Below, piece after piece: positions 5,101 through 20,736 of a stretch of DNA of 64,000 nt. The DNA is from Anaerolineae bacterium. GTDB taxonomy: Bacteria; Chloroflexota; Anaerolineae; Anaerolineales; UBA4823. How positions within the stretch are numbered: position 1 is the first letter of the stretch; each line of letters starts with the position of its first letter. The notes beneath the pieces were generated by a model that worked only from the letters and a program-made list of their open reading frames with translations, had not been told where the DNA came from and did no database searches. Made by a program: the position numbers and the translations under genes. The stretch covers positions 1,328 through 65,327 of the forward strand of contig JBFYSV010000182.1 in NCBI GenBank assembly GCA_041301185.1, given 5' to 3'.

Positions 5101-5148
5101 CAACTCAAGCAGGGGCGCGCCGAGCAAGCTCAGAGTAAGTTTCTGCAT
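2104..5148 (-). CDS. SARP/AfsR-like transcriptional regulator: OmpR-type winged helix + BTAD + AAA/NB-ARC-like ATPase + TPR repeats
   Basis: 1014 aa. The N-terminus reads LSLLGAPLLELEGTPVHVDTRKAIALLAYLA...LWPD (winged-helix/BTAD). The Walker A is VLEGEAGIGKSRL. The C-terminal half has repeated A/L/Y-rich TPR-like units (YHRLGDWERAEGYF, LSYADMGDLERAIEF). Confidence 0.85.
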   Translation of the reverse strand: MQKLTLSLLGAPLLELEGTPVHVDTRKAIALLAYLAITRQPHSRDTLAALLWPDYSQTNARAALRRTISALHRSLGKPLLESRQELLYLPDSTGLQVDAWEFYRCLAECESHPHPASQACPKCLPWLSQAACLHRGTFMAGFSLRDSAEFDDWQFFQSETFRRELGSVLERLVQGYADQGNFETAIDYAQRWLSLDALHEPAHRQLMQLYALSGQRNAALRQYQECVRILDKELGVAPLAETSRLFREIKEQTGPRRAASSLDIPARSPAAAGYQHLQTGTGFYAAAIATQALPRKPHALLLPLTSRETEWKALHQAYAEIERDGQFIVLEGEAGIGKSRLAEEFLASIRPTGASIIQARCYPGETNLAYAPFIEGLSNAISQTVYANWHHSISASSLSEAARLLPAIHQLQTNLPAIPPAEDPGAQARFFENLSLVIRALCEGDTPGVVFLDDVHWADDASLDLLTYFVRRLRGHPLLILVTWRGEDLGSGHRLRRLLAEAQRNDYGELINLARLTPESVRALVGILTSQVPRVTPTITEQLYQETEGLPFFIYEYLASLPESGDNSAPASWPLPHGVRDLLHSRLEQISETGVQLLQTAAAIGRSFDYDTLREASGRTDEETISTLEILMGHGLIREALPGQEKTGPENLRLLSYDFSHEKLRHLVYGETSLARRRLLHLRIAESLVGRIRGRHDQPGFAGQIAYHYKQAGQARPAAEFYQIAGEQARSLYANAEALAHFQTALALGHPHIAQINEAIGDTHILMGNYDSAINSLEAALAQQGTDPAAQARLGHKLGDVYHRLGDWERAEGYFQASAEMLRDGNDPGGLARLYADWSRTVYRRGEMENAWQMACQALALAEEAVDIASLALTHNILGILSRAREDLSAAIIHLAKSLDLAKKIDQPVGQIAALNNLSLSYADMGDLERAIEFASQALTLCAALGDRHREAALHNNLADLYHTAGLEEHSMAHLKQAVIIFAEVNRAGMDEVAAPASELADRSHPEIWKLTEW

Positions 5149-5251
5149 ATGCCACTCAAGCTAACCATTGATGATCCCCGGTTTTTTTATGCGGATTGAA
5201 ATCAGACAGTCAATAGCCCCATTTTACTCGAAAATAGTTACTAAATTTTGC

Positions 5252-5296
5252 CGTAACGTCTGCCGTAACGTTTTAGTTACGCTGGTTGGGTATAAT
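5252..5296 (+). promoter_or_regulatory. Candidate activator-dependent promoter: direct repeat CGTAACG-N5-CGTAACG, then 20 nt, then TATAAT
   Basis: CGTAACG at 5252-5258 and 5264-5270, TATAAT at 5291-5296. It lies in the divergent region between the SARP regulator and the cytochrome c gene. The same architecture and spacing recur at 16034-16078 and 20692-20736. Confidence 0.45.
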
Positions 5297-5384
5297 ATGA
5301 TAAAACAGGCTGAATTACACCATATTGCTGCTTGCCCTGCGTGTGATTCTCTTGAGAATGATTGACGCAGGAGGAAATGCAAAG

Positions 5385-6290
5385 ATGAAAAATGCACTTA
5401 AATGGATTGGGATCGTCCTTGGCGGATTGGTGGGTCTGCTCGTCCTGGTAGCGATAGGCTTGGTGATTTACGGGCAGGTTTCTTTTAAGCGGACCTATGC
5501 CAACCGTCCGCTCTACCCGATCACCGCCGACACAAGCCCGGAAGGTATTACCCGGGGCAAATACCTGATGGAAAACGTGATGATCTGCTACGAGGCCTGC
5601 CATTCCGAGTTTGGCAAGCCGTGGGTCGGAGGTTATGAAAAGGTTCAGGACGGCCCGATCTCGGCGGTGTTTGCTGTGCCCAATATCACCCAGGATATGG
5701 AAACCGGACTGGGAGGCTGGAGCGATGCCGAGATAGCCCGCGCCATCCGAGAAGGAATCGATAAGGATGGGGTCTCGCTGATGATTATGCCTTCGTCGAG
5801 CTACCATGCGCTGAGTGACGCGGATGTAGCCGCGGTGGTGGGCTATCTGCGCGGATTAGAGCCGGTGCGCAACGAGGTTCCACCCTTGCAGGTGAACACG
5901 GTTGGGAAAGTGTTTAATGCCCTGGGCATGTTCGGCCCCAGCCCGGTGGGCGAGCCCTACTCTGCCCCCCAGGTGGCTCCCCCGCCCGGTACGGTCGAGT
6001 ATGGCGCTTACCTGGTATCGTTGGGCGATTGCCGCGGCTGCCACGGGCCGGACCTGGCAGGTGGGCCGACGCCCTTCGCCATGGAAGGACCCTTACCGGC
6101 TAACCTGACCCCGGCTGGCGAGCTGCCAACCTGGACGGAGGCGGATTTCATCACTGCGGTACGCACCGGCGAGGTGCCCAGCGGGACTTTCCTGACGGAT
6201 GGCATGCCGCATTACAACATGACCGATGAAGACCTGGCGGCAATTTTCAAGTACCTGCAGACCCTGCCGCCGGTTGTGCCGGAAGGATAA
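5385..6290 (+). CDS. Membrane-anchored dihaem c-type cytochrome
   Basis: Two CxxCH motifs (CYEACH, CRGCH) and an N-terminal TM helix (WIGIVLGGLVGLLVLVAIGLVIY). ATG 5385 is preferred over the ORF-track start 5325 because GGAGGA lies 8 nt upstream. Confidence 0.75.
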   Translation: MKNALKWIGIVLGGLVGLLVLVAIGLVIYGQVSFKRTYANRPLYPITADTSPEGITRGKYLMENVMICYEACHSEFGKPWVGGYEKVQDGPISAVFAVPNITQDMETGLGGWSDAEIARAIREGIDKDGVSLMIMPSSSYHALSDADVAAVVGYLRGLEPVRNEVPPLQVNTVGKVFNALGMFGPSPVGEPYSAPQVAPPPGTVEYGAYLVSLGDCRGCHGPDLAGGPTPFAMEGPLPANLTPAGELPTWTEADFITAVRTGEVPSGTFLTDGMPHYNMTDEDLAAIFKYLQTLPPVVPEG

Positions 6291-6295
6291 TTCGT

Positions 6296-6325
6296 GTAGA
6301 GACGCAGCAGATGCTGCGTCTCTAC
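6296..6325 (+). terminator. Perfect 14-bp palindromic hairpin just after the cytochrome c stop (possible terminator or REP-like element)
   Basis: GTAGAGACGCAGCA-GA-TGCTGCGTCTCTAC at 6296-6325. There is no following T-run, so terminator function is uncertain. Confidence 0.4.
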
Positions 6326-6359
6326 GGGCGAAAAGAAACGATCAGACAGCTTACTCCGC

Positions 6360-6459
6360 TATCCGGTCAGCATCAGGGGAGACCGGATAACCATCGAGGT
6401 CTCACGCCCGGTGCTTAACAATCCATGAACAAAATGATTGCACCGGACGTGAGGGCCTC
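6360..6459. repeat. Two further inverted repeats (hairpins) in the same intergenic region
   Basis: TATCCGGTC (6360-6368) pairs with GACCGGATA (6381-6389). GAGGTCTCACGCCCGGTGC (6396-6414) pairs with GCACCGGACGTGAGGGCCTC (6440-6459), imperfectly, with a 25-nt loop. Confidence 0.35.
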
Positions 6460-6547
6460 ATAACTATAAATTGGCAGCTTTGGCAAGCTATATCTGTAGA
6501 TCTGACGGATGATGTAAACCGATGCCATACATTTCAGCTAACAAGGT

Positions 6548-6646
6548 GTCATTCTAAGAGAGCGAAGTTACCGAAGAATCCCTGGAGCGCCTCGAAAAAG
6601 CAGTAGCCACAGGGACTCTTCGCTGCCTTTTGCAGCTCAGACTGAC
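6548..6646. repeat. Imperfect 36-nt inverted repeat (MITE/REP-like palindromic element)
   Basis: The left arm is GTCATTCTAAGAGAGCGAAGTTACCGAAGAATCCCT (6548-6583). The reverse complement of the right arm (6611-6646) is GTCAGTCTGAGCTGCAAAAGGCAGCGAAGAGTCCCT. The termini GTCA.TCT.AG and GAAGA.TCCCT are shared. Confidence 0.35.
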
Positions 6647-6681
6647 ATTAAGTTGGAAATCAAGTCAGGAGATCACAAAAT

Positions 6682-7158
6682 ATGATGACCGATACGAAAG
6701 GAACGATCAACAAGGAAATTAGCGCCAGCGATGCAGCCATTGACGGGCTGCTGAGCGGTGTGCTGGCGGGGTTGGCGATGATAGCTTACGTAGCATTAAG
6801 CGCCTGGATTGGTGGAGCCGACCCGGTGGCTACCCTGGCTCTGTTTGCCCCTGAACCCACGACTGGTCCGCTGGTGGGGCTACTGGCGCACCTGGCGGTG
6901 TCCGGTATCTACGGGGTGGTGTTTGGAGCGCTATATGCCGGGCTGCTGCGCCGCCCGAATTACAACCCGCCTGCCTGGCTGCACGCCCTGGTGGGCGGTC
7001 TGTATGGCTTGCTGCTCCTGCTGGCAGCCTGGACGCTCTTACTGCCAGCCACCGGCTCACGGCTCCAGCAGATCCCCTTGCTCCACCTGGCGGTGGGCCA
7101 CGTGGTGTACGGCGCTTTGCTGGGCTGGCTGGTTTATCGCCGGGTGCAGCGGGCATGA
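6682..7158 (+). CDS. Small 4-TM membrane protein, unknown function
   Basis: 158 aa with four Gly/Ala/Leu-rich hydrophobic segments. GGAG lies 8-11 nt upstream of the ATG. It is the first gene of the membrane-protein island. Confidence 0.6.
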   Translation: MMTDTKGTINKEISASDAAIDGLLSGVLAGLAMIAYVALSAWIGGADPVATLALFAPEPTTGPLVGLLAHLAVSGIYGVVFGALYAGLLRRPNYNPPAWLHALVGGLYGLLLLLAAWTLLLPATGSRLQQIPLLHLAVGHVVYGALLGWLVYRRVQRA

Positions 7159-7189
7159 GATTGAACACAAGCGAGATATTGATTGGATC

Positions 7190-8590
7190 ATGCCTCGATT
7201 AATAAACGATTCCGAGACGAAGTTTAATCGCGGCGCCTGGCTGACCCTGGCGTTTGTCATACTGCTGCTCTTCTATCTGTTTGCTTCACTCGCTTACCGC
7301 TTCTCATTGCCCACAGACGGCTGGATGGTGAATGAAGCAACGCAGGTGGGTTTCAACTACACCAAAAACCTGATGGGCGCACCTTCCGGTTTGCAGCCCG
7401 GTGATAATGTGATCGCCGTGGAGGAGAATCCCGCGGATAGGTTTAATATCTCACCTGCTCTGCAGGAAGCCTGGAAAGCAGGAGCTATCCTGGAGTACAC
7501 CGTGATCCGGGATGGTGAAGAAATACAGGTGCCTGTGACGCTGACCCACTGGCAGATTGGGAAATGGCTAAGGATTACGCTGGGCGACCCATACATGCTA
7601 TTGGGGATATTCCCGGGGTATTTCTTGCTGATCCTGGCTTTCATTGTTTTTCTGCTCCGCCCCGGTGATCTTGCTGCTGGAGCGTTTCTGTTGCTTATGA
7701 CTGCCTTATTTCAAGTGTCGAATCTGCCCACCGGCTTGGCGGAGTGGATCGATCCGCTGGCGAATATCGCCATAGTAGGAACGATCGATGTTTTGCTTGT
7801 GGTTGTTATGCCTTTCTTGTTCATCCGTTTTGGGCTGGTCTTCCCGCACCTCAAGCCGATCGTGCAGCGCCTGCCCTGGCTGACCTATGTGCCCCTCGCG
7901 ATCGGTTTGCTTATCAGCGTTTTATTCCCTTACAGTATTTTGGGCTGGTTTTGGTTGTTATTTTCATTGTTCTTAACCGTAGCCATTCTTATCCACAATG
8001 CAATCACCATGCGGGATGCGGTCAGCCGGGCACAGATCCTGTGGGGCGTGGGCGGGATCATCTTCGGCTTTGGGTTGATCGCGCTGCTGTTGGTGGCGAA
8101 TACCTTTGAGTTGATCGAGTTCAACCAAAATTTCACCAATCTGGTCTCTGCCCTCGCCCTGATGGGTATGGGCATCTGCCTGGCGATTGCCATCACCCGC
8201 TACCGCCTGTTCGACATAGAGGTCATCATTCGCCGCACGCTGGTCTACGCCGCCCTCACCGCCACCCTGGCGTTGGTTTACTTCGGCAGCGTGATCTTGA
8301 TGCAAAGCCTGTTCGAGGCAGTCACCGGGCAGCAGTCGGCAATCGCCATTGTGATCTCCACCCTGGGCATTGCCGCCCTGTTCAATCCATTGCGCAAGCG
8401 CATCCAGAAGGACATCGACCGGCGCTTCTTCCGCAAGAAGTACGACGCCGAGAAAATTGTGGCGGCGTTCGGTGCCGGTTTGCGCGAGGAAGTGGACCTG
8501 GAGGAGCTGAGCAAGCGCCTGCTGGGGGTGGTGGAGGAGACCCTGCAACCGGAGAGCCTGTCGCTGTGGTTAAGGAAGAGGTCAAAATGA
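7190..8590 (+). CDS. Output-less sensor-like polytopic membrane protein, paralog 1 (PDZ-like ectodomain type)
   Basis: 466 aa from ATG 7190. The ORF-track frame opens at 6809, but its first 127 codons overlap gene 6682-7158 in another frame. The N-terminus MPRLINDSETKFNRGAWLTL matches paralog 17407. It has a PDZ-like stretch (GAPSGLQPGDNVIAVEENP), then about 8 TM helices, then the conserved C-terminal module ITRYRLFDIEVIIRRTLVY...IDRRFFRKKYDAEK...VVEETLQPESLSLWL. Confidence 0.8.
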   Translation: MPRLINDSETKFNRGAWLTLAFVILLLFYLFASLAYRFSLPTDGWMVNEATQVGFNYTKNLMGAPSGLQPGDNVIAVEENPADRFNISPALQEAWKAGAILEYTVIRDGEEIQVPVTLTHWQIGKWLRITLGDPYMLLGIFPGYFLLILAFIVFLLRPGDLAAGAFLLLMTALFQVSNLPTGLAEWIDPLANIAIVGTIDVLLVVVMPFLFIRFGLVFPHLKPIVQRLPWLTYVPLAIGLLISVLFPYSILGWFWLLFSLFLTVAILIHNAITMRDAVSRAQILWGVGGIIFGFGLIALLLVANTFELIEFNQNFTNLVSALALMGMGICLAIAITRYRLFDIEVIIRRTLVYAALTATLALVYFGSVILMQSLFEAVTGQQSAIAIVISTLGIAALFNPLRKRIQKDIDRRFFRKKYDAEKIVAAFGAGLREEVDLEELSKRLLGVVEETLQPESLSLWLRKRSK

Positions 8591-9816
8591 GCGCCACACC
8601 TAATTTCAGGGGTCGCAAACAGTGGTGGGTGGCTATCTTGCTCTTTGGGCTATATCCTGCCATGCTTGCTGTCTGGTATTCGCTGACCGATATCTCCCCG
8701 CCCGGTCCACAGGCGCAGTCCAGTCAGGTCAGCTTTCTGATCCTGTTTGGAGCTTTCGCTGCTGTTGGCGCACTGCTCGTGGCGCACCGTCCCGCAAACC
8801 TGGTCGGCTGGATCTTCTACACATCCGGGATTGTAGGCGCATTCTCGGGTTTCGGCGGCGAATACGCCCGCTACACCCTGTTGACCAACCCGGGATCACT
8901 GCCTTACGGACTTGCGGTCGGGTTGCTCTCGGACGTGGTCTGGCTCTGGGCGCTTATTCAGATGTTCACCTTTCTGCCGCTGCTTTTCCCCACCGGGCGG
9001 CTGCCCTCGCCGCGCTGGCGCTGGGTTGGCTGGCTGACTTTTTTTGGATTTCTTGTATTATTTATCGGCATCTTTCTGACTCCCGCTATCGCATTAGGGC
9101 GGCAGGAATGGCGGTATACCGTCGAGAATCCCATCGGGATCAAAGGCGCGGAAGCGGTGCTCTCTGATATAGGCAGCAGCGCGTTTGTGCTGATCGTGGT
9201 CAGCGCATTCTTTTCCACAGTGTCGCTTTTGGTCCGCTACCGGCGAGCATCCGGGCAGGAGCGCGCCCAGATCAGGTGGTTTGCTTACGCGGTTGTCATT
9301 ATCGTGGGTTTTATTCTCCTCACTGAGATTATCGATTTTAAGGTGCCAGATATCCTGTTTGTACTGAGCATGATGACCCTGCCTATCGCCGCTGCCATCG
9401 CTATTCTTAAGTACCGCCTGTACGATATCGACGTGATCATCCGGCGCACGCTGGTCTACGGCGCGCTCACCCTGACCCTGGCGCTGGTCTACTTCGGCAG
9501 CGTGGTGCTGCTGCAGGGCGCATTCACCGCGGTCAGCGGTCAGCAGTCGGCAATCGCCATTGTGATCTCCACCCTGGGCATTGCCGCCCTGTTCACCCCA
9601 TTGCGCAAACGCATCCAAAACGACATCGACCGGCGCTTCTTCCGCAAGAAGTACGACGCCGAGAAAACCCTGCAAGCTTTCAGTGCCAACCTGCGCCAGG
9701 AGCTGGACCTGGAAGAGCTGAGCGAGCGTTTGTTGGGGGTAGTGGAGGAGACCCTGCAGCCGGAATCGGCCAGCCTGTGGATGATAAAGCCTACACTCGG
9801 AGAGAAGAAGATCTGA
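8587..9816 (+). CDS. Output-less sensor-like polytopic membrane protein, paralog 2
   Basis: 409 aa. ATG 8587 overlaps the stop of paralog 1 (ATGA). The N-terminal half contains HRPANLVGWIFY and RYRRASGQERAQIRW. The C-terminal module is ILKYRLYDIDVIIRRTLVY...IDRRFFRKKYDAEK...VVEETLQPESASLWM. Confidence 0.8.
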   Translation: MSATPNFRGRKQWWVAILLFGLYPAMLAVWYSLTDISPPGPQAQSSQVSFLILFGAFAAVGALLVAHRPANLVGWIFYTSGIVGAFSGFGGEYARYTLLTNPGSLPYGLAVGLLSDVVWLWALIQMFTFLPLLFPTGRLPSPRWRWVGWLTFFGFLVLFIGIFLTPAIALGRQEWRYTVENPIGIKGAEAVLSDIGSSAFVLIVVSAFFSTVSLLVRYRRASGQERAQIRWFAYAVVIIVGFILLTEIIDFKVPDILFVLSMMTLPIAAAIAILKYRLYDIDVIIRRTLVYGALTLTLALVYFGSVVLLQGAFTAVSGQQSAIAIVISTLGIAALFTPLRKRIQNDIDRRFFRKKYDAEKTLQAFSANLRQELDLEELSERLLGVVEETLQPESASLWMIKPTLGEKKI

Positions 9817-9883
9817 TCGGGCGATCGCTCCCAAGCCAATTGAAGGTCTTCTCCGGTATAATCGTAGTCTTGGTGCTATAGGG

Positions 9884-11254
9884 ATGAAACGCTTTGTCTT
9901 AACCCCATTCTTGCTCCCGGAGAAACCTCTGACCGGCAGGAGCCTGCTGGCTGCCCGCCTGGTATCAGCCGGGATTAGTCTGGCAAGCCTGACCATGTTC
10001 CTGGTCGCCTTACCGGCGCGCCTGGAATGGCTGACCCGCTTTTCGTTTGGCGCAGAGCGGGTTCTCCTCGAGCAAACGTTATTACTTAATGACCCCATCC
10101 ACTGGTTGACCGATGTGTTTCCGTATGTTGCCCTGGCAATCGAGATCATCGTGTTTTTGATCTACCTGTTGAACGCTGCTTTGCTCTACTACCTCCGCTC
10201 GCAAGAATGGCTGGTTTTGCTGACCTCTGCTGCGTTGATGTCCTTTGCCCTGCATATCATCCCCACCCTGAATACCTGGATGCTGGAAAACCCTGATCTG
10301 GCCTTTTTGGGGATCATCCTCAAATCGATTGGCCTGGGACTGGCTTTTCTTTTCCTGTACCTCTTCCCCAGCGGGTTTTACTCTCCACGCTGGATTCGCG
10401 TATTTTTCTTGCTGTGGATTGTTTGGGCGCTCCTATGGCTGATCTACCCGGATTCGATCTTCAGCTTTCAAGACCCGTTCAATATCAGCCTGGTTGGCTT
10501 TGTGTTGCTGATGACTTGGTGGGGGGTGGGTATCTTTGCCCAGCTATACCGCTACTCGCGCGTCTCCGGTCCAGTTGAGCGCCAGCAGACCAAGTACATC
10601 ACATTTGGAGCCACCCTGGTGGCAATCGCCTACTGCCTGTACGTGCCGCTGCGCCAGTTGATGAGCTACATGCCCCGCCCCGACCTGGCTCAAGTCGTTT
10701 TTCAAATGGTTGCCCCGTATGTGTATTTGGTCATGGTGGCTGCCATCCCCATCACGATTGCCTTGTCTATCTTGCGTTACCGGCTATGGGATATCGACCT
10801 GATCATCCGCCGGACCCTGTTATACTCTGCGCTGACCGCAACCCTGGCGGTACTCTATTTCGCCAGTGTAGTGTTGATGCAGGGCTTGCTTGCCCTGGCA
10901 GGCGTCAATCAATCGGCATTGGTAGTTGTGATCTCTACCCTGGGGATTGCGGCCTTGTTCACACCGCTGCGACAGCGCATCCAATCGGATATCGATCGTC
11001 GTTTCTTCCGCCGGCGTTACGACACCGAGAAGATCCTGGCGGCTTTTGCAACCCTGGCCAGCGAGCAGGTTGACCTGGACGAGCTAAGCAGCCGTTTTTT
11101 GGCAGTCGTTGAAGAAACGATGCAGCCCGAGTTCGCCGGCGTGTGGCTGGCGCCTCTCTCCATCGGCGGGATGCCTCCCGAAGGGGTAAATGACCAAAGA
11201 GCAAGCCAGGCTTCCAGCCTATATCGCCAATCTGTAAAGGAGGATGGTTTATGA
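9884..11254 (+). CDS. Output-less sensor-like polytopic membrane protein, paralog 3
   Basis: 456 aa, about 10 TM helices, with QLYRYSRVSGPVERQQTKYI. The C-terminal module is ILRYRLWDIDLIIRRTLLY...IDRRFFRRRYDTEK...VVEETMQPEFAGVWL, followed by a 40-aa hydrophilic tail. Confidence 0.8.
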   Translation: MKRFVLTPFLLPEKPLTGRSLLAARLVSAGISLASLTMFLVALPARLEWLTRFSFGAERVLLEQTLLLNDPIHWLTDVFPYVALAIEIIVFLIYLLNAALLYYLRSQEWLVLLTSAALMSFALHIIPTLNTWMLENPDLAFLGIILKSIGLGLAFLFLYLFPSGFYSPRWIRVFFLLWIVWALLWLIYPDSIFSFQDPFNISLVGFVLLMTWWGVGIFAQLYRYSRVSGPVERQQTKYITFGATLVAIAYCLYVPLRQLMSYMPRPDLAQVVFQMVAPYVYLVMVAAIPITIALSILRYRLWDIDLIIRRTLLYSALTATLAVLYFASVVLMQGLLALAGVNQSALVVVISTLGIAALFTPLRQRIQSDIDRRFFRRRYDTEKILAAFATLASEQVDLDELSSRFLAVVEETMQPEFAGVWLAPLSIGGMPPEGVNDQRASQASSLYRQSVKEDGL

Positions 11255-12621
11255 GTCCAGAACGCAGTAACACCCCGGTGGAACGCCAGGTGGAATGGGG
11301 TTCGCAGGATGCCGGGCAATATTTCCGCTATATGTCTGAGTTCGTTGGATTTGGCTTGCAAGAAGCCGAAGCCATCCAGGCGACTCACCTGATTGTCGAG
11401 AAGTACATCCCACAGATTGTGGGCCAGTTCTATACTAAGTTGCTGGGCTACCCGCCAACCCGCAAGGTGTTTTCGAAAAAAGACGGCAGCATCGACCAGG
11501 AATATCTCCAGATGCGCATGCACCACCTGACCAATTTTCTACGCCGCACTGCCGCTGGGGTCTATGACAATGATTATGCCCGCTTTATCGATTATGTCGG
11601 TCGGGCGCATACCTCGCATGGCGCCGACCCCAAGATTTATATCCCCGAGCGCTATGTCATCGGGCAGATTGGCTTGATCCAGCATGCCATCAGCGACGCT
11701 TTGCACAAAGAGCTGGGCGATGCGGACCCCGAGCTGGAACACCAGGCCTCCAGGGCATGGAACCTGCTGTTGATGGTGATCCTGGAGATGCTGGCCAGGG
11801 CATACAGCGACGAACGCGCTGCTGAAGGAGAGGGCACCCAGGCAACCATCGACAAAAGCACCGTCCAGCAGCTTGCAGTCCAGATCTACGAGCGCAACCT
11901 GGGGTTGTATCGCTCGATTGAGCACAAAGAGGTAAAAATTGGGAGAGTAGCCGATATCCCCGAAGGCGAGCGAAAGATTGTGGAGGTAGAGGGGGTCTCG
12001 ATTGGCGTTTTCCATCACAACGGGGACTGGTACGCCTTGCGCAATAGCTGCTTGCACCGCTCCGGGCCGGTGTGCACCGGGTCGCTAAAAGACGGCATCC
12101 TGACCTGTCCCTGGCACGGTTACCAGTATGAAATTACGAATGGTGAGTTTTTGCTGGACAGCAGCGCAAAACTGGAAATGTACCCGGTAGAGATTCGAGA
12201 AGGCGATATTTACCTGCGCGTCCCATTCCTGGTGATGGACTCGCCTCCCGTCGAGCTGGAACCAGCAAGCGGAGCAGGGACAGCCCAGCCAGTTTCCACC
12301 GCGGCCCCCGAGAAGCCATCCCTGAAAGGGAACGAGTTTTGGGTTGCAGACCTCCCACCGGGACAGATCGGTTTGGTGGTGGTGGGCGGGGAGGAAGTAG
12401 CCGTTTATAATATCGCAGGAAAATTCTACGCTACGCACAATTACTGCACCCATGCCGACGGGCCATTGAACGAGGGCTATATAGAAGAATATGGCGTGGT
12501 ATGCCCCTGGCACGACTCGTGCTTCGATGTGCGCGATGGCAGCGTGCTCAGGGGACCGGCAACCGAGCCAGTCATAGCGTATACCGTGATCGTTGAAGAC
12601 GGGATCGGCCGGGTAGAGTGA
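11251..12621 (+). CDS. Protoglobin-like (globin-coupled-sensor type) domain fused to two Rieske [2Fe-2S] domains
   Basis: 456 aa. The N-terminal ~190 aa resemble sensor globin/protoglobin (FIDYVGRAHTSHG...YIPERYVIGQIGLIQ, candidate proximal His in GRAH). There are two CxH-X(16-17)-CxxH Rieske motifs: CLHRSGPVCTGSLKDGILTCPWHG and CTHADGPLNEGYIEEYGVVCPWHD. The ATG overlaps the stop of paralog 3 (ATGA). Confidence 0.7.
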   Translation: MSPERSNTPVERQVEWGSQDAGQYFRYMSEFVGFGLQEAEAIQATHLIVEKYIPQIVGQFYTKLLGYPPTRKVFSKKDGSIDQEYLQMRMHHLTNFLRRTAAGVYDNDYARFIDYVGRAHTSHGADPKIYIPERYVIGQIGLIQHAISDALHKELGDADPELEHQASRAWNLLLMVILEMLARAYSDERAAEGEGTQATIDKSTVQQLAVQIYERNLGLYRSIEHKEVKIGRVADIPEGERKIVEVEGVSIGVFHHNGDWYALRNSCLHRSGPVCTGSLKDGILTCPWHGYQYEITNGEFLLDSSAKLEMYPVEIREGDIYLRVPFLVMDSPPVELEPASGAGTAQPVSTAAPEKPSLKGNEFWVADLPPGQIGLVVVGGEEVAVYNIAGKFYATHNYCTHADGPLNEGYIEEYGVVCPWHDSCFDVRDGSVLRGPATEPVIAYTVIVEDGIGRVE

Positions 12622-12682
12622 TTGAGTGATAAAATTTAATTCGCGGTTGATGCGTGAGAGATAAACACGCTTCGGAGGAAGC

Positions 12683-13936: not shown

Positions 13937-13966
13937 ACACTCGCCCCTGATAACAGGCATCCTGGA

Positions 13967-15922
13967 TTGAACAAGGGAACGGACGTCCTGTTACAGCCAG
14001 ACGAAATTCCTGCGCAGCCGCGCAGGCGGCTTTGGTTTGGGCGGGTAGCCTGGCTTGTGCTGGCTATCCTGGTAGCGATTTACTGCCTGGCGGTTGTTCC
14101 GATTGATGTTCGGAATTACCCGGATAGTTGGGAGGCGGTTTCTAGCTACCCGGCTGTGGATAGCCTGCTTTCTTTCTCTGCTTATTCCTTCTATCAGCTC
14201 GCCCTGCGCTACCTGGTTATCTTCTTCTCGTTTTTCGTCGCCCTGACGATCTTTATCCGGGTTGGGCTGGCGGATAGCAGGTACGCGCCGGTTGCCCTGC
14301 TGGCGGCCTCCTTGCTGGTCTTATTCCCGCTGCTTGTTTCCCTGGGAGCCAGCGGAGTGGATCTGCCTTATGCTCGACCGTGGGATCGGGTCTTAGAGGC
14401 GGTTGGTCTCCTGCTGGGCTTGCTGTGCTTCCCGCTGCTCATCTGGTTTTATTTCGTCTTTCCTGATGGGAATTTCAACCCTGGTTGGATGCGCTGGCTG
14501 GGAGCGCCGCTTGCCGTAACGATAGTTCTTATGTTTTCGCTTTCGGTTACCCAGGCTATCCCTGGGGGATGGTGGTGGGCTGTTGGAATGCTGGCGTTCC
14601 TGGTCGCTTTAGTGGCGGGGATTGCTTCGCAGATATACCGCTACCGGGTTCTTGCCAGTGCTGCAGAGAAGAGCCGCACCCGCTGGGTCATCGTAAGCCT
14701 GCTCCTGTTGCCTGTGCTGACAATCCTGGGTTCCAGCCTGTCTGCGCTGATCAATATCCACCTGCAAGCTCTTTCCGTGGCTCTGCTGCCAACCGCATTG
14801 CTCATATCGATCTTCAAATACGGGCTTTGGGCGGTGCGCCTATCCCCCCGTCGGGTGAAAGGATACGCCTACCTGGTTGGGGTTTTGGTGGTTACCGGCA
14901 TGCTGAGCCTGTTCTGGTTCAATCGCACCTACCAGCTAGAAGCTTACCCTGCCATCGATTTTGAGCCGCTGCCGCAAACCGATCAGCAATTGCCGGTGGT
15001 CATCGACACTGATATGGCTGCCGACGACTGGATGGCGATCCTCTTTCTATTGCAGCGCTCGGATGTGCAGGTCAAAGCGATCACGGTCACCGGGGCAGGC
15101 GAAGCCCATTGCGAGCCTGGCGTGCGTAATGCCCTGGGGCTGGTGGCGCTGGCTGGTAATGATCCCATCCCGGTGGCTTGTGGTCGAGAAACCCCGCTGG
15201 CGGGAAACCAGGAGTTCCCCCAGGCGTGGCGGGAGGGCGTTGACCAGTTGCTGGGGTTGCAGCTGCCTGAGGGCAGCAATCCGGATACCACCGGCAATGC
15301 TGTCGATCTGCTCGTATCCACAGCCGAAACTTCACCCGAAAAAGTAGTCTTGCTGACCCTCGGCCCGCTGACCAATGTGGCAGAAGCCATCCAGCAAGAG
15401 CCCGCCTTCCTGGAGAACATCCAGCAGATCTATATCATGGGCGGGGCGCTGCAGGTTCCAGGCAACGTGTTTTATTCGGGGGTGGGAATCGATAATAAAG
15501 ATGCTGAATGGAATGTTTTTGTGGACCCGCTGGCAGCCAAGATAGTCATCGAATCGGGTGCCCCGGTCACCCTGGTGCCCTTGGATGCCACCAACCAGGT
15601 GCCAGCCGATCTGAGCTTCTACCGCCAACTGCAAAGCAACCGCAAAACGCCTGAAGCGGAGTTTATTTACCAGGTGCTGAGCAACAAGCTGGATATGATC
15701 CTGCCGGGCGTTTACTATTTCTGGGATCCCCTGGTGGCGGCGGTGGCAGTTGATGAGAGCATTGGATATATCAAAGATGGTCTGGTTCGGGTCATTGCAG
15801 AGCCGGGGGTGCACAGCGGAGCCACCCGCCTGGTGAAAGATGGTGTTCCGGTGCGCTATGCCAAGTCGGCGGACAACGAGCGGTTTGTTTTCGAGTTCCT
15901 GCGTGCTTTAAATCAGGAGTAG
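13967..15922 (+). CDS. Fusion: sensor-like polytopic membrane domain (same family as paralogs 3, 5 and 7) + inosine-uridine-preferring nucleoside hydrolase domain
   Basis: 651 aa. The N-terminal ~310 aa are multi-TM, with QIYRYRVLASAAEKSRTRWV and ISIFKYGLWAV (degenerate versions of the family motifs). The C-terminal ~320 aa carry the IUNH signature VVIDTDMAADDWMAILFLL (DTDxxxDD), then YIMGGA and WDPLVAAVAV. The TTG start has no clear SD, so the start is uncertain. Confidence 0.7.
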   Translation: MNKGTDVLLQPDEIPAQPRRRLWFGRVAWLVLAILVAIYCLAVVPIDVRNYPDSWEAVSSYPAVDSLLSFSAYSFYQLALRYLVIFFSFFVALTIFIRVGLADSRYAPVALLAASLLVLFPLLVSLGASGVDLPYARPWDRVLEAVGLLLGLLCFPLLIWFYFVFPDGNFNPGWMRWLGAPLAVTIVLMFSLSVTQAIPGGWWWAVGMLAFLVALVAGIASQIYRYRVLASAAEKSRTRWVIVSLLLLPVLTILGSSLSALINIHLQALSVALLPTALLISIFKYGLWAVRLSPRRVKGYAYLVGVLVVTGMLSLFWFNRTYQLEAYPAIDFEPLPQTDQQLPVVIDTDMAADDWMAILFLLQRSDVQVKAITVTGAGEAHCEPGVRNALGLVALAGNDPIPVACGRETPLAGNQEFPQAWREGVDQLLGLQLPEGSNPDTTGNAVDLLVSTAETSPEKVVLLTLGPLTNVAEAIQQEPAFLENIQQIYIMGGALQVPGNVFYSGVGIDNKDAEWNVFVDPLAAKIVIESGAPVTLVPLDATNQVPADLSFYRQLQSNRKTPEAEFIYQVLSNKLDMILPGVYYFWDPLVAAVAVDESIGYIKDGLVRVIAEPGVHSGATRLVKDGVPVRYAKSADNERFVFEFLRALNQE

Positions 15923-16033
15923 CTGGCTCACCCGGCAGTCTCCTTCCTGGGTCCGTCAATCTATTCTCTCTGGCAGCTTTACCATATTGCGTCAATACAC
16001 AAAACGCGCGTATTGCTGCCGGATTCCCTCTTT

Positions 16034-16078
16034 CGTAACGCCAACCGTAACACTTTCGAGACGGGAGGTGAGTATCAT
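16034..16078 (+). promoter_or_regulatory. Second copy of the CGTAACG-N5-CGTAAC(A)-N20-TATCAT promoter architecture
   Basis: CGTAACG at 16034-16040, CGTAACA at 16046-16052, TATCAT at 16073-16078. The spacings are identical to the copies at 5252 and 20692. It lies upstream of paralog 5. Confidence 0.4.
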
Positions 16079-16117
16079 ATACCCATCTATCTTGACATTT
16101 ATGACCCAAGGAGAATA

Positions 16118-17410
16118 TTGAAAAGCCTCTTGAGTGTGCCAGAAACAGTACCCTTTCGTAATAGCGGGGCATGGTTGCGAATAGCGCGCCCGCTGGCTTT
16201 CTTGCTGGGAGCTGTACTCACCCTGCTGGCGATTTATTCGTACGCCTATACAGCCAGTATGGTCTTCACAAATCCGGCGCTGGTTCTGCCGGATGAAAAA
16301 TGGACAGCCCCCCTACTTAACAATGCCCTGGTTGGATTGGGGCTGCCGGGAGCTTTTTATGCTGTTTTTACCCTGGGCATAACCCTGCTATTTGGTCTTT
16401 CTTTCCTGGTCTGTGGTTGGTTAATCCTGCTGCGCAGAAGCCGGGATTGGTTTGGCCTGTACCTGGCTCTGTTACTTTTAGCCTGGGCAAGCGGGGTGGG
16501 GGTGTTTTCTTCAATGCCGAGTGCTGCCTGGACCGAGGGCACTTATCTCGGCTGGTTTATGTGGCCGGGATTATTCTTGTTGCCTTATTTTTTCCCCAGC
16601 GGTCATGTTATCCCACGCTGGGCGCGCTGGTTCGCCTGGGGCTGGATTTTATTCTCCGCTTATATGTTTGTAACGGATGTCCTGGGTGTTCTCCCCGAGA
16701 ATTTCTTGCTCTTTTTACCGGTAATTTTTTCTGTTCTGCTGGTGGGCGGCTACGCTCAGATCTACCGTTACCGCCATGCCAGCGCGCTGGAACGCCAGCA
16801 AATCAAGCTAGTGGTATTTTCGTTGGTACTTTTCGCTACATTCTTTGTATTCTTTGCGCTGGCAATCAATTACACCGGGTTGGTTGACCCAGGCAAACGC
16901 AGCCCGGTCAGCGCGCTTGCCTTTAGCCTCCTCCTTTCAACCGGCGCTCATCTGGTTTTTATGGGCGTGCCTATCTCCATCGCCGTGGCGATTCTGCGTT
17001 ACCGGCTGTGGGATATGGATATTGTGATCCGCCGCACCCTGGTCTACGGCGGTTTGACCCTCACCCTGGCGCTGGTGTATTTTGGCAGCGTGATCCTTTT
17101 ACAAAGTATGGTGACCGCCGTCGGCGGGCAGCAGACGGCGGTCGTAACCGTGATCTCCACCCTGCTGATTGCCGCCCTGTTCAACCCGCTACGCAAGCGC
17201 ATCCAGAGCGGTATTGACCGGCGCTTCTTTCGTAAGAAATACGACGCCGAGAAGGTCGTGGTCGCGTTCGGCGCCAGCCTGCGCCAGGAGGTGGATTTGG
17301 AAGATCTACAATCTCAGATTGTGGCGGTAGTGGAAGAGACCCTGCAACCGGAGCTGGTCAGCCTGTGGCTGAGACCGGGAACAGATAAGAAGGGTGAGGT
17401 GAGCCTGTGA
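16118..17410 (+). CDS. Output-less sensor-like polytopic membrane protein, paralog 5
   Basis: The ORF-track frame opens at 16013 (TTG), but that would place the candidate promoter inside the gene. In-frame TTG 16118 follows AAGGAG. The protein contains QIYRYRHASALERQQIKLV. The C-terminal module is ILRYRLWDMDIVIRRTLVY...IDRRFFRKKYDAEK...VVEETLQPELVSLWL. The start is uncertain. Confidence 0.75.
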   Translation: MKSLLSVPETVPFRNSGAWLRIARPLAFLLGAVLTLLAIYSYAYTASMVFTNPALVLPDEKWTAPLLNNALVGLGLPGAFYAVFTLGITLLFGLSFLVCGWLILLRRSRDWFGLYLALLLLAWASGVGVFSSMPSAAWTEGTYLGWFMWPGLFLLPYFFPSGHVIPRWARWFAWGWILFSAYMFVTDVLGVLPENFLLFLPVIFSVLLVGGYAQIYRYRHASALERQQIKLVVFSLVLFATFFVFFALAINYTGLVDPGKRSPVSALAFSLLLSTGAHLVFMGVPISIAVAILRYRLWDMDIVIRRTLVYGGLTLTLALVYFGSVILLQSMVTAVGGQQTAVVTVISTLLIAALFNPLRKRIQSGIDRRFFRKKYDAEKVVVAFGASLRQEVDLEDLQSQIVAVVEETLQPELVSLWLRPGTDKKGEVSL

Positions 17411-18849
17411 GTGCCTGGACTCGACAGATAGATGAAAAACGCTTTGATCGCGGCGCCTGGGTGGTCCTGGCTTTAGCCCTGGCTCTGGTGCTGTTGAGCG
17501 CGGCCCAGATTGCTTACCGCTATACCCTGCCCACCGATGGATGGTCGGTGTACACCACCCAGGTTGATCAAGCAGATTGGGTTTACTCGAGCAATCTGGT
17601 TGGAGCGCCATCTGGTTTGCAACAAAATGATGCCCTGCTGGCTGTCGATGACCTGCCGATGCAGGGCAGCGCTACCAGTTACGCGGTACCACCTCCGCCT
17701 GGCTGGGTTGCCGGTCAAAGCGTCGATATGACAGTGCAGCGTGGGGAGCAGGAGGTTTCTATTCTGGTACCGGTTGTTCGCTGGACGCCAGGAGCCTTGT
17801 GGCGCTACAACATCGCAGACCTGGTCAAACTGATCAGTCTGCTCGGCGTGCTGACACTTTTCGCGGTCGGTCTGTTTACTTTCATCAAGCGTCCCAGTGT
17901 GCTAGCAGCGCGGGCGTTGCTGGTGTTGTGTTCCGCGTCCTTTGCTAACAGCCTGAGCGGGCTGCTACCGGATGGGCTTTCAGTGCAGTTCGACCCACTG
18001 GCATTCGCCTTCACCGCTTTCTTTAGCTATATCATCTTTGGAACCCTGCTGGCGCCATCTATCCTGGCCTTTACTTTGCTCTTTCCCCATCCCAAGCGCG
18101 TAATCCAAAGATACCCCAGGATAGGCCTGCTGCCTTATGCTCTAGGGTTGGCGATCTTGATTGCCCTGCTGGCTGGAGTGCCGGGGTCAATTGGCTGGTT
18201 TGGTACGCTGGGTATGATCCTGGCTTCGATTACCAGCATGGTGCATTCGGGTTTCACCCAGCGAGATGCGGTCAGCCGGGCGCAGTTGCGCTGGGCGATC
18301 GGTGGCTTCATTGCCGGTCTGGGTCTGGCGCTGTTGACCTTCCCGGCTGCATTGGGTTGGGTAACCAATCCCTTCCTGGCACAATTGCTGGGATCCGGGG
18401 TCAGTATCGGCTTTACCGTGATTAGCATCTGTCTGGCCATTGCTGTGCTGCGCTACCGTCTGTGGGACATCGACGTCATCATCCGGCGTACGCTGGTCTA
18501 TGCCGCGCTGACCGCCACTCTGGCGCTGGTCTACTTTGGCAGCGTGATCTTGCTGCAAAGCCTGGTGACGGCGGTCGGGGGGCAGCAGACGGCGGTCATC
18601 ACGGTCATTTCCACCCTGTTGATCGCTGCCTTATTCACCCCGCTGCGCAGGCGTATCCAGAACGATATCGACCGGCGCTTCTTTCGCAAGAAGTACGACG
18701 CCGAGAAGGTTGTGGCCGCATTCGGCAGCAGCCTGCGTGAAGAAGTGGACCTTGACGACCTGCAAGACCATATTGTGGCGGTGGTAGAGCAGACCTTGCA
18801 ACCGGAACACGCCAGCCTGTGGCTGAGGAATCCGGAGAAGAGAGGGTGA
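17407..18849 (+). CDS. Output-less sensor-like polytopic membrane protein, paralog 6 (PDZ-like ectodomain type)
   Basis: 480 aa. The GTG start overlaps the stop of paralog 5 (GTGA). The N-terminus is collinear with paralog 1 (FDRGAWVVL...YRYTLPTDGW...GAPSGLQQNDALLAVDD), and HSGFTQRDAVSRAQLRW matches HNAITMRDAVSRAQILW of paralog 1. The C-terminal module is present. Confidence 0.8.
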   Translation: MSAWTRQIDEKRFDRGAWVVLALALALVLLSAAQIAYRYTLPTDGWSVYTTQVDQADWVYSSNLVGAPSGLQQNDALLAVDDLPMQGSATSYAVPPPPGWVAGQSVDMTVQRGEQEVSILVPVVRWTPGALWRYNIADLVKLISLLGVLTLFAVGLFTFIKRPSVLAARALLVLCSASFANSLSGLLPDGLSVQFDPLAFAFTAFFSYIIFGTLLAPSILAFTLLFPHPKRVIQRYPRIGLLPYALGLAILIALLAGVPGSIGWFGTLGMILASITSMVHSGFTQRDAVSRAQLRWAIGGFIAGLGLALLTFPAALGWVTNPFLAQLLGSGVSIGFTVISICLAIAVLRYRLWDIDVIIRRTLVYAALTATLALVYFGSVILLQSLVTAVGGQQTAVITVISTLLIAALFTPLRRRIQNDIDRRFFRKKYDAEKVVAAFGSSLREEVDLDDLQDHIVAVVEQTLQPEHASLWLRNPEKRG

Positions 18850-20126
18850 CCGAAGGGAGACTGCACTCTACCCAGTTGCATGGCATCTGGCTTCAATTGG
18901 CTCGTCTCTTGTGGTGGGTGGCTGTCCTGGCGATCACCACCATTTTTGTGGTCGCATTACCCGTGCGCATGGAACAAATTCGCCAGGATCCTTACCAGCT
19001 CACACCGATCCTGAATCAATTGGGGCTGGGCATCACTTTCTTTGTGTTCTATGGCCACACATTGGAGATCATTCTCTCGTTTGCATGCCTGGCGATTGCC
19101 CTGATCATTTACTGGCGCAAGTCAGACGATTGGATGGGGCTGCTGGTTTCACTGGGTCTGGTTTCATTTATGGCCCTTCTGCCTCCTATTGCCGCGCTGT
19201 CGGAGACGAATCCAGAGTGGCGCATCCCGGTGTTCTTGCTTCGTATCTTCAGCTTCGCCGCCTTGCTGATGATTTTCTATTTATTTCCGGATGGACGCTT
19301 TGTGCCTGGTTGGAGTAGGTATATCCTCCTGTTTTTCATTGCAATGTCATCTTTATGGCTTCTGTTCCCTGGGCTGACCCTCCCAGCCGCGCCGGCTGAT
19401 ATTCAATCTATACCGCAAGCTTTACTGGTAGCCTGGGTGATCCTTGGACTCAGCACGGGGGTATTTGCCCAGCTCTATCGCTACCGCAGAGTATCTGCGA
19501 ATGTGGAGCGCCAGCAGACCAAGTGGGTTGTGATGGGTTTTCTGGGGGTGTTCTTGGGGCTGCTCCTGGTTTCTTTGCCGGTGCTCTTATTTCCTGCTTT
19601 GCTTGAACCAGGCATGCCAAATTTCATCTACTTGATGATCGCCATTCCGGTAGCCTTGTTCGGCTGGTTTTTATTCCCATTGACCCTGGGTATATCCATC
19701 CTGAAATATCGTTTGTGGGATATCGATGTCATCATTCGGCGCACGCTGGTTTATGGTGGTCTGACTGCTACCCTGGCTCTGGTCTACTTCAACAGCGTGA
19801 TACTGATGCAGAGCCTGGTGACGGCGGTCGGCGGGCAACAGACAGCGCTTGTAACGGTGATCTCCACCTTGCTCATCGCCGCCCTGTTCACCCCGCTGCG
19901 ACGCCGAATTCAAAATGACATCGACCGGCGCTTTTTCCGCAAGAAGTACGATGCCGAGAAAACTGTGACAACATTCAGTGCCAGCCTGCGAGAAGCCGTA
20001 GACTTGGAGGTCTTGATCGAACGATTGGAGGCTGTGGTGGAAGAAACCTTACAGCCGGAATATGTGAGTCTGTGGTTTGTTAAACAGAAACCGAAGGATG
20101 AGTTGGAAAACCGACTTGATATTTAG
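18846..20126 (+). CDS. Output-less sensor-like polytopic membrane protein, paralog 7
   Basis: The ORF-track start is GTG 18819. In-frame GTG 18846 gives a GTGA start/stop overlap like its neighbours. The protein contains QLYRYRRVSANVERQQTKWV. The C-terminal module is ILKYRLWDIDVIIRRTLVY...IDRRFFRKKYDAEK...VVEETLQPEYVSLWF. Confidence 0.8.
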   Translation: MTEGRLHSTQLHGIWLQLARLLWWVAVLAITTIFVVALPVRMEQIRQDPYQLTPILNQLGLGITFFVFYGHTLEIILSFACLAIALIIYWRKSDDWMGLLVSLGLVSFMALLPPIAALSETNPEWRIPVFLLRIFSFAALLMIFYLFPDGRFVPGWSRYILLFFIAMSSLWLLFPGLTLPAAPADIQSIPQALLVAWVILGLSTGVFAQLYRYRRVSANVERQQTKWVVMGFLGVFLGLLLVSLPVLLFPALLEPGMPNFIYLMIAIPVALFGWFLFPLTLGISILKYRLWDIDVIIRRTLVYGGLTATLALVYFNSVILMQSLVTAVGGQQTALVTVISTLLIAALFTPLRRRIQNDIDRRFFRKKYDAEKTVTTFSASLREAVDLEVLIERLEAVVEETLQPEYVSLWFVKQKPKDELENRLDI

Positions 20127-20138
20127 AAGGAGTATCCG

Positions 20139-20609
20139 ATGAGAATTGGTATAAAGACATTTACCTTACTTATACCCGTGCTGATATTGGCTTTGTCTGC
20201 TTGTAGTTCTGAACAAACCGAGCCTATAATAGATCCTACCCAGGGCGCTCAAATGCTGGCAGGGAATTACAAAACCAGTATTACCACCGAGGACATCAGT
20301 AATTTTCAGATCTCGAGCGACCCCAGTCTTGGGATGAACCAGGGAGACTGGCTGTTCACCCTGACCCATGATGGAAAATTCAATGCCGAGATGGACGGAA
20401 ATTTTATGGCGGCGGGAAAATACACTGTGGAAGGTGATCGCATCGAGGTGTATATCGAGAGCAGTTGTGAGGAATGTGGTTGCATAAATGCGATCGGTCG
20501 CTATGTCTGGGCGCTGAATGAGGATACTTTAACCTTTGTAAAAACGGCAGGAAGCTGTTACGGTATGGACCTTGTTCTCACCTCAAAAGCTCTTACCCGG
20601 CAGCCTTAG
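20139..20609 (+). CDS. Lipoprotein, unknown function
   Basis: 156 aa. The signal peptide has a lipobox (LILALSAC). AAGGAG RBS. The start is 12 nt after paralog 7. Confidence 0.65.
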   Translation: MRIGIKTFTLLIPVLILALSACSSEQTEPIIDPTQGAQMLAGNYKTSITTEDISNFQISSDPSLGMNQGDWLFTLTHDGKFNAEMDGNFMAAGKYTVEGDRIEVYIESSCEECGCINAIGRYVWALNEDTLTFVKTAGSCYGMDLVLTSKALTRQP

Positions 20610-20691
20610 ATATTACAGTAGGGTGATAGCAGGCACAGTGAAAATCTGCTTGCAGCCGTCTCTTGGTCAAATATAGTCAGCGAGTTTTTTT

Positions 20692-20736
20692 CGTAACGCA
20701 TTTCGTAACGATTTGCAGACGCTCCTCTAGTAAAAT
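20692..20736 (+). promoter_or_regulatory. Third copy of the CGTAACG-N5-CGTAACG-N20-TAAAAT promoter architecture
   Basis: CGTAACG at 20692-20698 and 20704-20710, TAAAAT at 20731-20736 (a TATAAT also lies at 20742-20747). It is about 30 nt upstream of the PP2C gene ATG. The ~50-nt alignment to the 5252 copy also includes ACGCT and TA.AATATG. Confidence 0.45.

Follow-up and report, generated by a model that had tools for sequence, protein, structure and literature searches.

The closest described counterparts of the promoters considered here are those of SARP-type activators. In the AfsR complex, two SARP protomers lie side by side on a pair of 11-bp repeats, one spanning −40 to −30 and the other −29 to −19 (PMC10936776). 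Both sigma region 4 and the core of RNA polymerase are touched by the protomers, and the repeats overlap the −35 element (PMC10936776). More generally, SARP repeats follow an 11- or 22-bp period, and the 3′ repeat lies 8 bp from the −10 element (PMC10936776). PimR of Streptomyces natalensis uses a direct-repeat operator of three heptamers, which it binds cooperatively, with one monomer per heptamer (PMC5930380). Here we describe three promoter-like sites that share a CGTAACG repeat box, and a large SARP-type regulator encoded divergently from the first of them, in a 64,000-nucleotide stretch of DNA from an Anaerolineae bacterium of the Chloroflexota (assembly GCA_041301185.1, contig JBFYSV010000182.1; C89:1328-65327, hereafter the window). 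To our knowledge, SARP regulators have been studied nearly exclusively as switches of Streptomyces antibiotic clusters. We propose, with a probability of about 0.8, that the regulator binds the three sites and activates them as sigma-A promoters in the SARP manner; this proposal comes from comparing sequences.

5252..5296, plus strand: site 1 promoter, with R1 CGTAACG (5252-5258), R2 CGTAACG (5264-5270), R3 AGTTACG (5275-5281) and −10 hexamer TATAAT (5291-5296)
16034..16078, plus strand: site 2 promoter, with R1 CGTAACG (16034-16040), R2 CGTAACA (16046-16052), R3 CGAGACG (16057-16063) and −10 hexamer TATCAT (16073-16078)
20692..20736, plus strand: site 3 promoter, with R1 CGTAACG (20692-20698), R2 CGTAACG (20704-20710), R3 GCAGACG (20715-20721) and −10 hexamer TAAAAT (20731-20736)
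2104..5148, minus strand: AfsR-like "large SARP" regulator of 1014 amino acids, with a SARP domain (winged helix and BTAD) at residues 1-255, STAND/AAA_16 at about 304-480 and TPR at about 720-985

The first-pass annotation of the window had described each site as two heptamers with a 12-bp period, followed after 20 nt by a −10-like hexamer. All three sites were found again at 5252, 16034 and 20692, with the same period and the same gap, and the heptamers stand. The box does not end with them: a third, degenerate repeat (R3) starts 11 bp after the start of R2 and ends 9 nt before the hexamer at every site (alignment in 12-nt blocks), which makes three parts instead of two. The 12-bp period holds for the step from R1 to R2, and the R2-R3 pair has the classical SARP step of 11 bp. 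The string ACGCT that had been noticed at sites 1 and 3 is real, and it belongs to R3, which is conserved in relatives as GACG(C)T. A TTT-rich spacer after R2 is also common to the three sites. The full box is CGTAACG-N5-CGTAACG-N4-nnnGACG-N9-TAnAAT. It has no −35 hexamer, and none fits at a spacing of 16-18 nt from the −10 hexamer of the box. In contrast, TTGACW-N17-TAnnAT has four exact matches elsewhere in the window (pattern scan; 0.01 expected), so housekeeping promoters with a canonical −35 do exist in this organism. The absence of a −35 at sites 1-3, which had been set against such promoters before, is borne out.

39099-39127, minus strand: canonical TTGACW-N17-TAnnAT promoter
44667-44695, plus strand: canonical TTGACW-N17-TAnnAT promoter
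60302-60330, minus strand: canonical TTGACW-N17-TAnnAT promoter
62463-62491, minus strand: canonical TTGACW-N17-TAnnAT promoter

A separate TTGACA-16-AATATT lies at 16092-16119 on the plus strand, between the site 2 hexamer and the TTG start at 16118. It overlaps the ribosome-binding site and is probably non-functional for its gene.

The missing −35 bears on whether a bound protein would activate or repress. If transcription starts 7 nt after the hexamer, which is the assumption behind all repeat numbering here, then the box would extend from about −51 to −22, and a SARP-type protein bound there could occlude RNA polymerase and repress promoters that are otherwise active. We consider this highly unlikely. 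A canonical −35 is present at the organism's other promoters but missing at sites 1-3, which are therefore expected to be weak promoters without help. Also, the characterised SARPs are all activators, and the box has the position of the activating afs box (PMC10936776).

In this genome, the box is confined to the three sites. With up to one mismatch allowed, CGTAAC-N6-CGTAAC has three matches in the window where shuffled sequences give 0.08. In the genome assembly (4.17 Mb in 361 contigs, 91.5% complete), the exact pattern occurs only at sites 1-3, all on one strand and within 15.5 kb, although only about 0.1 matches are expected from the frequency of the hexamer. A genome scan for one-mismatch and other-spacer variants returned only chance-like matches in coding sequence. 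We also scored 8.3 million genome positions with a position weight matrix (PWM) trained on the sites of relatives only (described below). A whole-genome PWM scan had been named beforehand as a check, and in it the three sites stand clear of all other positions: site 3 is the best in the genome (58.7), followed by site 1 (50.8) and site 2 (36.8), and the next best position scores 17.3. Given the gap between 36.8 and 17.3, the regulon in this 91.5%-complete assembly consists of three promoters. Searching the genome for further members with this PWM and with a generic pattern of the architecture, ACG-N9-ACG-N8-ACG-N9-TAnnnT, gave nothing convincing; the one exception is a weak look-alike. The generic pattern itself matches at site 1, at site 3, and at the end of contig C271.

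The look-alike (C271:26693-26740) reads CGAAACG-N5-AGCAACG-N4-CAGAAACG-N9-TAAACT and is the position with the PWM score of 17.3. The contig stops 3 nt past the hexamer, so the downstream gene is cut off, and there is no SARP paralog on C271.

Among 61 related genomes, 27 contain the exact two-heptamer pattern, often clustered within a few kb and nearly always with a G after the first hexamer. After dropping chance matches that lacked both GACG and the −10 hexamer, 57 promoter-like sites remained, in 23 of the 61 genomes and about 20 genera. Their consensus is (T/C)CGTAACG(C)TTT(C/T)CGTAACG(A)T...(G)GACG(C)T-N7-TAnA(A/C)T. Several positions that were not part of the search pattern are near-invariant (G7 in 54 of 57 sites, G19 in 57, T21 in 50, G27 in 46, and A43 in 46). 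From R2 to R3 the step measures 11 bp throughout, and from R1 to R2 it measures 12 bp at about 57 sites.

In more than 20 related genomes, the box stands before the same gene families as in the window; looking for it upstream of orthologous genes in relatives had been suggested beforehand as a check. The first gene after the box, for the 57 relatives' sites plus the window's three, is as follows:

17 of 60 sites: GAF-PP2C-HATPase_c_2 protein (16 in relatives, plus window site 3)
12 of 60 sites: membrane paralog family (11 in relatives, plus window site 2)
11 of 60 sites: cytochrome c homolog (10 in relatives, plus window site 1)
1 of 60 sites: protoglobin-2xRieske protein
1 of 60 sites: 259-aa gene
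17 of 60 sites: other or unidentified, including the recurrent extra members given below
1 of 60 sites: no open reading frame, because the contig ends

The PP2C loci mostly continue with two STAS genes, the 259-aa gene, and an FAD oxidoreductase, as far as the sequence extends. The comparative evidence thereby supports each part of the small regulon that had been suggested from the window (the cytochrome c, part of the membrane array, and the PP2C/STAS operon). Judged by this conservation, the regulon is a module shared across a Chloroflexota order and beyond, and is not confined to the window's genome.

Conservation also settles whether the similarity of the three sites could be due to chance, to a remnant of local duplication, or to a mobile repeat. 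The three sites do lie within 15.5 kb of a paralog-rich region. However, sites 1-3 are unlike one another in their flanks and in the spacers that separate the repeats. Orthologous promoters in the order and beyond it have kept the box, whereas their spacer positions have drifted. With three exact sites against an expectation of about 0.1, we regard the probability of such an origin as practically nil, and the conservation analysis rules it out.

A second alternative is that the boxes are promoters for an alternative sigma factor, either an extracytoplasmic-function (ECF) sigma or a SigB/SigF-type sigma that is freed by the PP2C/STAS switch, with GTAAC as the −35 and GACG or GGGTAT as the −10. 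GTAAC does resemble ECF −35 elements, GTTTTA-N12-GGGTAT at site 1 looks SigB-like, and a sigma factor is the usual target of the kind of proteins that the regulon encodes, namely STAS proteins and an RsbW-like kinase domain. We tried both readings and rejected them. As an ECF promoter (AAC as −35, CGT as −10), the box has the wrong spacing: 16-17 nt would be expected, but the CG of R3 lies about 22 nt from the AAC in R1 and about 8 nt from that in R2, and the conserved downstream hexamer is TAnAAT. Against a SigB-type promoter at site 1, the 57 relatives' sites do not keep the GGG that precedes the hexamer (positions 37-39 have low information) but do keep TAnAAT, and the 17 matches to Sigma70_r2 in the 91.5%-complete genome comprise two group-1/2 and about 15 ECF-sized proteins and no group-3 sigma. 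Also, no sigma gene accompanies the module in any relative, and direct, duplicated repeats are typical of activator sites. An alternative sigma factor is therefore very improbable.

What links the box to the SARP regulator is, first of all, co-occurrence. We searched the 61 genomes for orthologs, defined as full-length tblastn matches of the 1014-aa protein at 46-61% identity. Orthologs were found in 20 genomes, and the others have only paralogs of 30-35% identity. The counts were:

ortholog present: box present in 20 genomes, box absent in 0
ortholog absent: box present in 3 genomes (incomplete ones), box absent in 38

Second, a divergent box lies within about 150 bp of the start codon of the ortholog in all 20 genomes; in the window, site 1 is 103 bp from the regulator's start codon. 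The boxes next to the regulator are exact in 15 genomes and have one mismatch in three (G027, G034, and G049). In the other two (G016 and G025), the R1-R2 step is 11 bp, a form that is found only at these regulator-adjacent sites among all 61 genomes.

Third, the protein appears to be of the right kind. Pfam recognises BTAD (E = 1.4e-18), AAA_16 (E = 2.8e-27, residues 304-480), and several TPR families over residues 720-985. The alignment of residues 3-244 with EmbR (2fez; E = 5e-10) takes in the winged helix as well as the BTAD. An AlphaFold model of residues 1-260, made with 23 homologs as input, has a pLDDT (predicted local distance difference test) of 93.9, and its six top fold matches in the PDB are the SARP domain of AfsR (8k60, 8hvr) and EmbR, with TM-scores of 0.70-0.76. 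Judged by these profiles and by the predicted fold, the architecture is that of an AfsR-type large SARP: winged helix and BTAD, then STAND/NOD, then TPR. The NCBIfam model for AfsR matches only the TPR part and is far under its cut-off. The proposal that the adjacent 1014-aa regulator is the candidate activator thus draws support from the predicted fold, from co-occurrence, and from the divergent adjacency in 20 of 20 genomes.

The regulator has a candidate promoter of its own, found by eye, on the minus strand at 5213-5184: TTGACT (5213-5208), 18 nt, and TAAAAA (5189-5184). As this is separate from the box, autoregulation is not indicated.

The regulator and the box also extend beyond the order. 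Scanning public genomes gave full-length orthologs of 42-46% identity in metagenome-assembled genomes (MAGs) of several phyla, labelled Thermoleophilia, Solirubrobacteraceae, Nitriliruptorales, Actinomycetota, Acidobacteriota, Gammaproteobacteria, Thermomicrobiales, and Litorilinea/Caldilineaceae. In most of these distant MAGs, a core of the form CGTAACGnTTyCnGGACG lies upstream of the regulator and divergent from it, and R1 is degenerate. Homologs of the membrane paralogs, the PP2C protein, or the cytochrome c or an FAD oxidoreductase are found beside the regulator there. For two orthologs from Ktedonobacterales (L092 and L093), no adjoining box was found. The core of R2, R3, and hexamer also occurs in 20 of 401 genomes sampled across the phylum, in several families and often three to five times per genome. 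As the core is kept where R1 is degenerate, R2-R3 and the hexamer seem to be the ancient core, and R1 is by this comparison an upstream addition that is strong in the window's lineage.

Another piece of evidence comes from paralogous regulators, of which there are 5-17 per genome. In 80 regulator loci (591 kb, both strands), the generic pattern has 15 matches, and 14 of these are just upstream of a SARP gene and divergent from it; eight controls with shifted spacing gave 0-3 matches. Seven of the 15 matches belong to paralogs with other heptamers (such as TGTCACG twice, ACAGACG/TTTGACG, GTAAACG/GCCTACG). These divergent promoters have the same spacing of 12 + 11 + 9, and their heptamers, of the forms TGTCACG, xxxGACG, and xxAAACG, are anchored on ACG:

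L126:2907, minus strand: divergent promoter of a SARP paralog
L149:2882, minus strand: divergent promoter of a SARP paralog
L153:2909, minus strand: divergent promoter of a SARP paralog
L162:2882, minus strand: divergent promoter of a SARP paralog
L163:2911, minus strand: divergent promoter of a SARP paralog
L163:2588, minus strand: divergent promoter of a SARP paralog
L167:2692, minus strand: divergent promoter of a SARP paralog

The predicted recognition helix (about residues 57-72) differs as well: it is ARAALRRTLSAL in the CGTAACG group and ARATLRRVLSDL, AYAYLRNALWQL, and others in the paralogs. The VDTRKA motif before helix 1 also differs between the two. In a tree of SARP domains, which is poorly resolved at its base, the paralogs with other heptamers fall outside the window's clade with modest support. 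By these comparisons, paralogous regulators keep the spacing of the box and change the heptamer.

These results bear on a third alternative, that some other DNA-binding protein acts on the box and that the SARP gene is merely a member of the regulon. OmpR/PhoB-type response regulators are the obvious example, as they too bind direct repeats that overlap the −35. However, the box tracks the SARP ortholog both in presence or absence and in position (adjacent in 20 of 20 genomes), and the module has no further conserved transcription factor. If an unrelated protein read the box, it would also be hard to see why paralogous SARPs lie beside boxes that share the spacing and differ in their heptamers. 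We consider another factor quite unlikely.

As activation by the SARP regulator is the reading we prefer, we can suggest how it would work. Sites 1-3 would be activator-dependent promoters of the housekeeping sigma, with the three-part direct-repeat box in place of the −35. R1 (CGTAACG) would lie at about −51 to −45, R2 (CGTAAC(G/A)) at about −39 to −33, and R3 (nnnGACG) at about −28 to −22. The box would most likely be occupied by the SARP domain of the adjacent, divergent regulator, with one protomer on each repeat, side by side. The protomers on R2 and R3 would occupy the half positions of an afs box and touch sigma region 4 and the core of RNA polymerase, and R1 would serve as an extra upstream anchor of high affinity. 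Control of the regulator's activity by some signal would fall to its STAND ATPase and TPR parts. The regulon would then be the cytochrome c (perhaps with later genes), three membrane paralogs with a lipoprotein, and the PP2C-kinase/STAS operon.

Several observations weigh against this proposal. The R1-R2 step is 12 bp rather than the canonical 11. From the end of R3 to TAnnAT is 9 nt, whereas 8 bp is the distance quoted for SARPs. R3 has just ACG, and sometimes G2, in common with the other two repeats, and its reader might therefore not be a third protomer. The Pfam match of the regulator to Trans_reg_C is weak (E = 0.01, below the cut-off). The association of box and ortholog (Fisher p = 3e-13) is not corrected for shared ancestry, and the start sites and the assignment of the −10 are predictions from sequence. 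Finally, the predicted leaders in the window are about 82 nt (site 1), 33 nt (site 2), and 22 nt (site 3), and in several relatives those of the PP2C gene would be very short. The PP2C start codon is conserved among relatives, and in seven of them (G019, G034, G039, G049, G016, G041, and G060; promoters at L050, L063, L065, L067, L079, L087, and L042, respectively) it is only 6-9 nt past the hexamer, usually with GGAG between. This distance implies either leaderless or near-leaderless mRNAs from the box promoter or a second promoter upstream, and the proposal would need one or the other in these genomes.

The genes downstream of site 1 are all on the plus strand:

5385..6290, plus strand: membrane-anchored cytochrome c (Pfam Cytochrom_C), the first gene after site 1
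6809-8590, plus strand: membrane paralog (by paralogy)
8566-9816, plus strand: membrane paralog (by paralogy)
9884-11254, plus strand: membrane paralog (by paralogy)
11251-12621, plus strand: protoglobin-2xRieske protein (Pfam)
12683-13936, plus strand: KAS (Pfam)
13967-15922, plus strand: fusion of a membrane domain and a nucleoside hydrolase (Pfam)

The genes from 6809 to 15922 may be transcribed by read-through from site 1, but this is uncertain. Neither a box nor a canonical promoter was found in the spacer at 6291-6808. A scan of 5000-24500 for consensus promoters and terminators found promoters no more often than in shuffled sequences. The order of cytochrome c, paralog, globin-Rieske, and KAS behind a box is also found in one relative (G002). 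In another (G028; L052, C24, box at 471641-471658 on the minus strand; S28), a box is directly before the protoglobin-2xRieske gene, which supports counting the window's gene at 11251-12621 in the regulon.

Sites 2 and 3 precede two operons:

16118-17410, plus strand: membrane paralog with a TTG start, site 2 operon (open reading frame, paralogy)
17407-18849, plus strand: membrane paralog, site 2 operon (open reading frame, paralogy)
18819-20126, plus strand: membrane paralog, site 2 operon (open reading frame, paralogy)
20139-20609, plus strand: 156-aa lipoprotein, site 2 operon (open reading frame)
20765-22405, plus strand: half-GAF-PP2C(SpoIIE)-HATPase_c_2 fusion, site 3 operon (Pfam, NCBIfam)
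22402-22749, plus strand: STAS protein, site 3 operon (Pfam, NCBIfam)
22776-23129, plus strand: STAS protein, site 3 operon (Pfam, NCBIfam)
23137-23916, plus strand: 259-aa protein without an assigned function, site 3 operon (Pfam, NCBIfam)
24139-25593, plus strand: CrtI/CrtO-like FAD oxidoreductase, site 3 operon (Pfam, NCBIfam)

Some genes that follow a box in relatives are not in the window. By eye, these are a protein of about 150 aa in five genomes, which looks like it has four transmembrane segments and has the motif AVDGL...LAVSGxYG (L081, L082, L050, L064, and L076; sites S13, S16, S27, S45, and S55); a beta-propeller-like protein of about 340 aa (L083 and L057; S19 and S35); and a membrane protein with a C-terminal motif that resembles a copper site, GxPGHxxxGMxG (L062 and L066; S41 and S47).

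The membrane paralogs and the PP2C protein may share more than a regulator. In the window's PP2C protein (20765-22405), the Pfam GAF matches are limited to the C-terminal part of the profiles and begin near profile position 52 or 80, according to the model, and the paralogs (for example, 8566-9816 and 17407-18849) end where a GAF would begin. This suggests that the tails of the paralogs and the N-terminus of the PP2C protein are two parts of one GAF, which would join interchangeable sensors to one phosphatase-kinase and would explain their co-regulation. The split is supported by a single-chain protein of about 886 aa in the same genome (C77:13987-16647), in which a membrane domain, the C-terminal module of the paralogs, a GAF, and a PP2C are fused; its GAF is complete (Pfam profile positions 2-131).

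It is conceivable, although we are doubtful, that all of these parts form a self-contained device that works without a sigma factor and is found across phyla: a split-GAF sensor/phosphatase, assembled from any of several interchangeable polytopic membrane proteins and the one soluble PP2C-kinase protein, a kinase and STAS proteins that act on the STAND-TPR part of the regulator, and positive feedback via the boxes. If so, then the regulator would turn on all of these genes by way of their CGTAACG boxes. That the STAS proteins or the kinase act on a SARP regulator is speculation.

If the SARP regulator does activate these promoters, then uncultured Chloroflexota have an AfsR-type SARP with a sharp box whose small regulon comprises membrane sensor-like proteins, a sigma-free PP2C/kinase-STAS partner switch, a cytochrome c, and a globin-Rieske protein. 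This would be a concrete set of targets for an uncharacterised but very abundant class of regulators, and it would tie several genes without a known function into a single co-regulated unit. The grammar (ACG-anchored repeats at 12 + 11 bp, 9 nt, and a −10 hexamer) could be used to predict the regulons of the paralogs. Nothing relevant turned up in literature searches for the heptamer or for Chloroflexi regulons of SARP proteins.

Among known systems, the nearest is AfsR at the afsS promoter of Streptomyces coelicolor. It has the same order of SARP domain, STAND/NOD ATPase, and TPR, and its SARP domain (8k60, 8hvr) has the same fold as predicted for the window's regulator (TM-scores of 0.71-0.76), at only about 21% sequence identity. 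The repeats of the afs box start at −40 and −29, which is within 1 bp of R2 and R3 (about −39 and −28), with an 11-bp step in both, and in both the direct repeats replace the −35 while the −10 is kept. Unlike the afs box, the window's box has an extra repeat (R1) at a 12-bp step, and its downstream repeat does not copy the upstream one but is degenerate, with GACG as its core. The host is also from the Chloroflexota rather than the Actinomycetota, and the targets are signalling and redox genes rather than afsS or antibiotic clusters.

PimR, of the SARP-LAL type, is likewise a large SARP with a C-terminal ATPase region and a three-heptamer operator. However, its heptamers (CGGCAAG) have uniform 4-bp spacers and do not overlap the −35, whereas the window's spacers are 5 and 4 bp and the −35 is covered. 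PimR has a single target gene, and the window's type of regulator has at least three promoters per genome. EmbR of Mycobacterium tuberculosis (2fez, 2ff4) is the best sequence match among solved structures and shares the winged helix and BTAD, but it has a C-terminal FHA domain instead of STAND and TPR and is controlled by the kinase PknH.

More distantly, at pho boxes, where winged helices of the OmpR family give class II activation, tandem direct repeats replace the −35 as they do in the window, and a head-to-tail dimer of PhoB contacts sigma region 4. PhoB is a response regulator with a receiver domain and without BTAD, STAND, or TPR, and the pho boxes have an 11-bp period. Thus, the type of switch is known, and what has not been described before is a target set of signalling and redox genes that is conserved across phyla. 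The regulon seems to be new and well delimited, under a known class of regulator that is here outside its usual phylum and role, and acting by what would be an ordinary mechanism.

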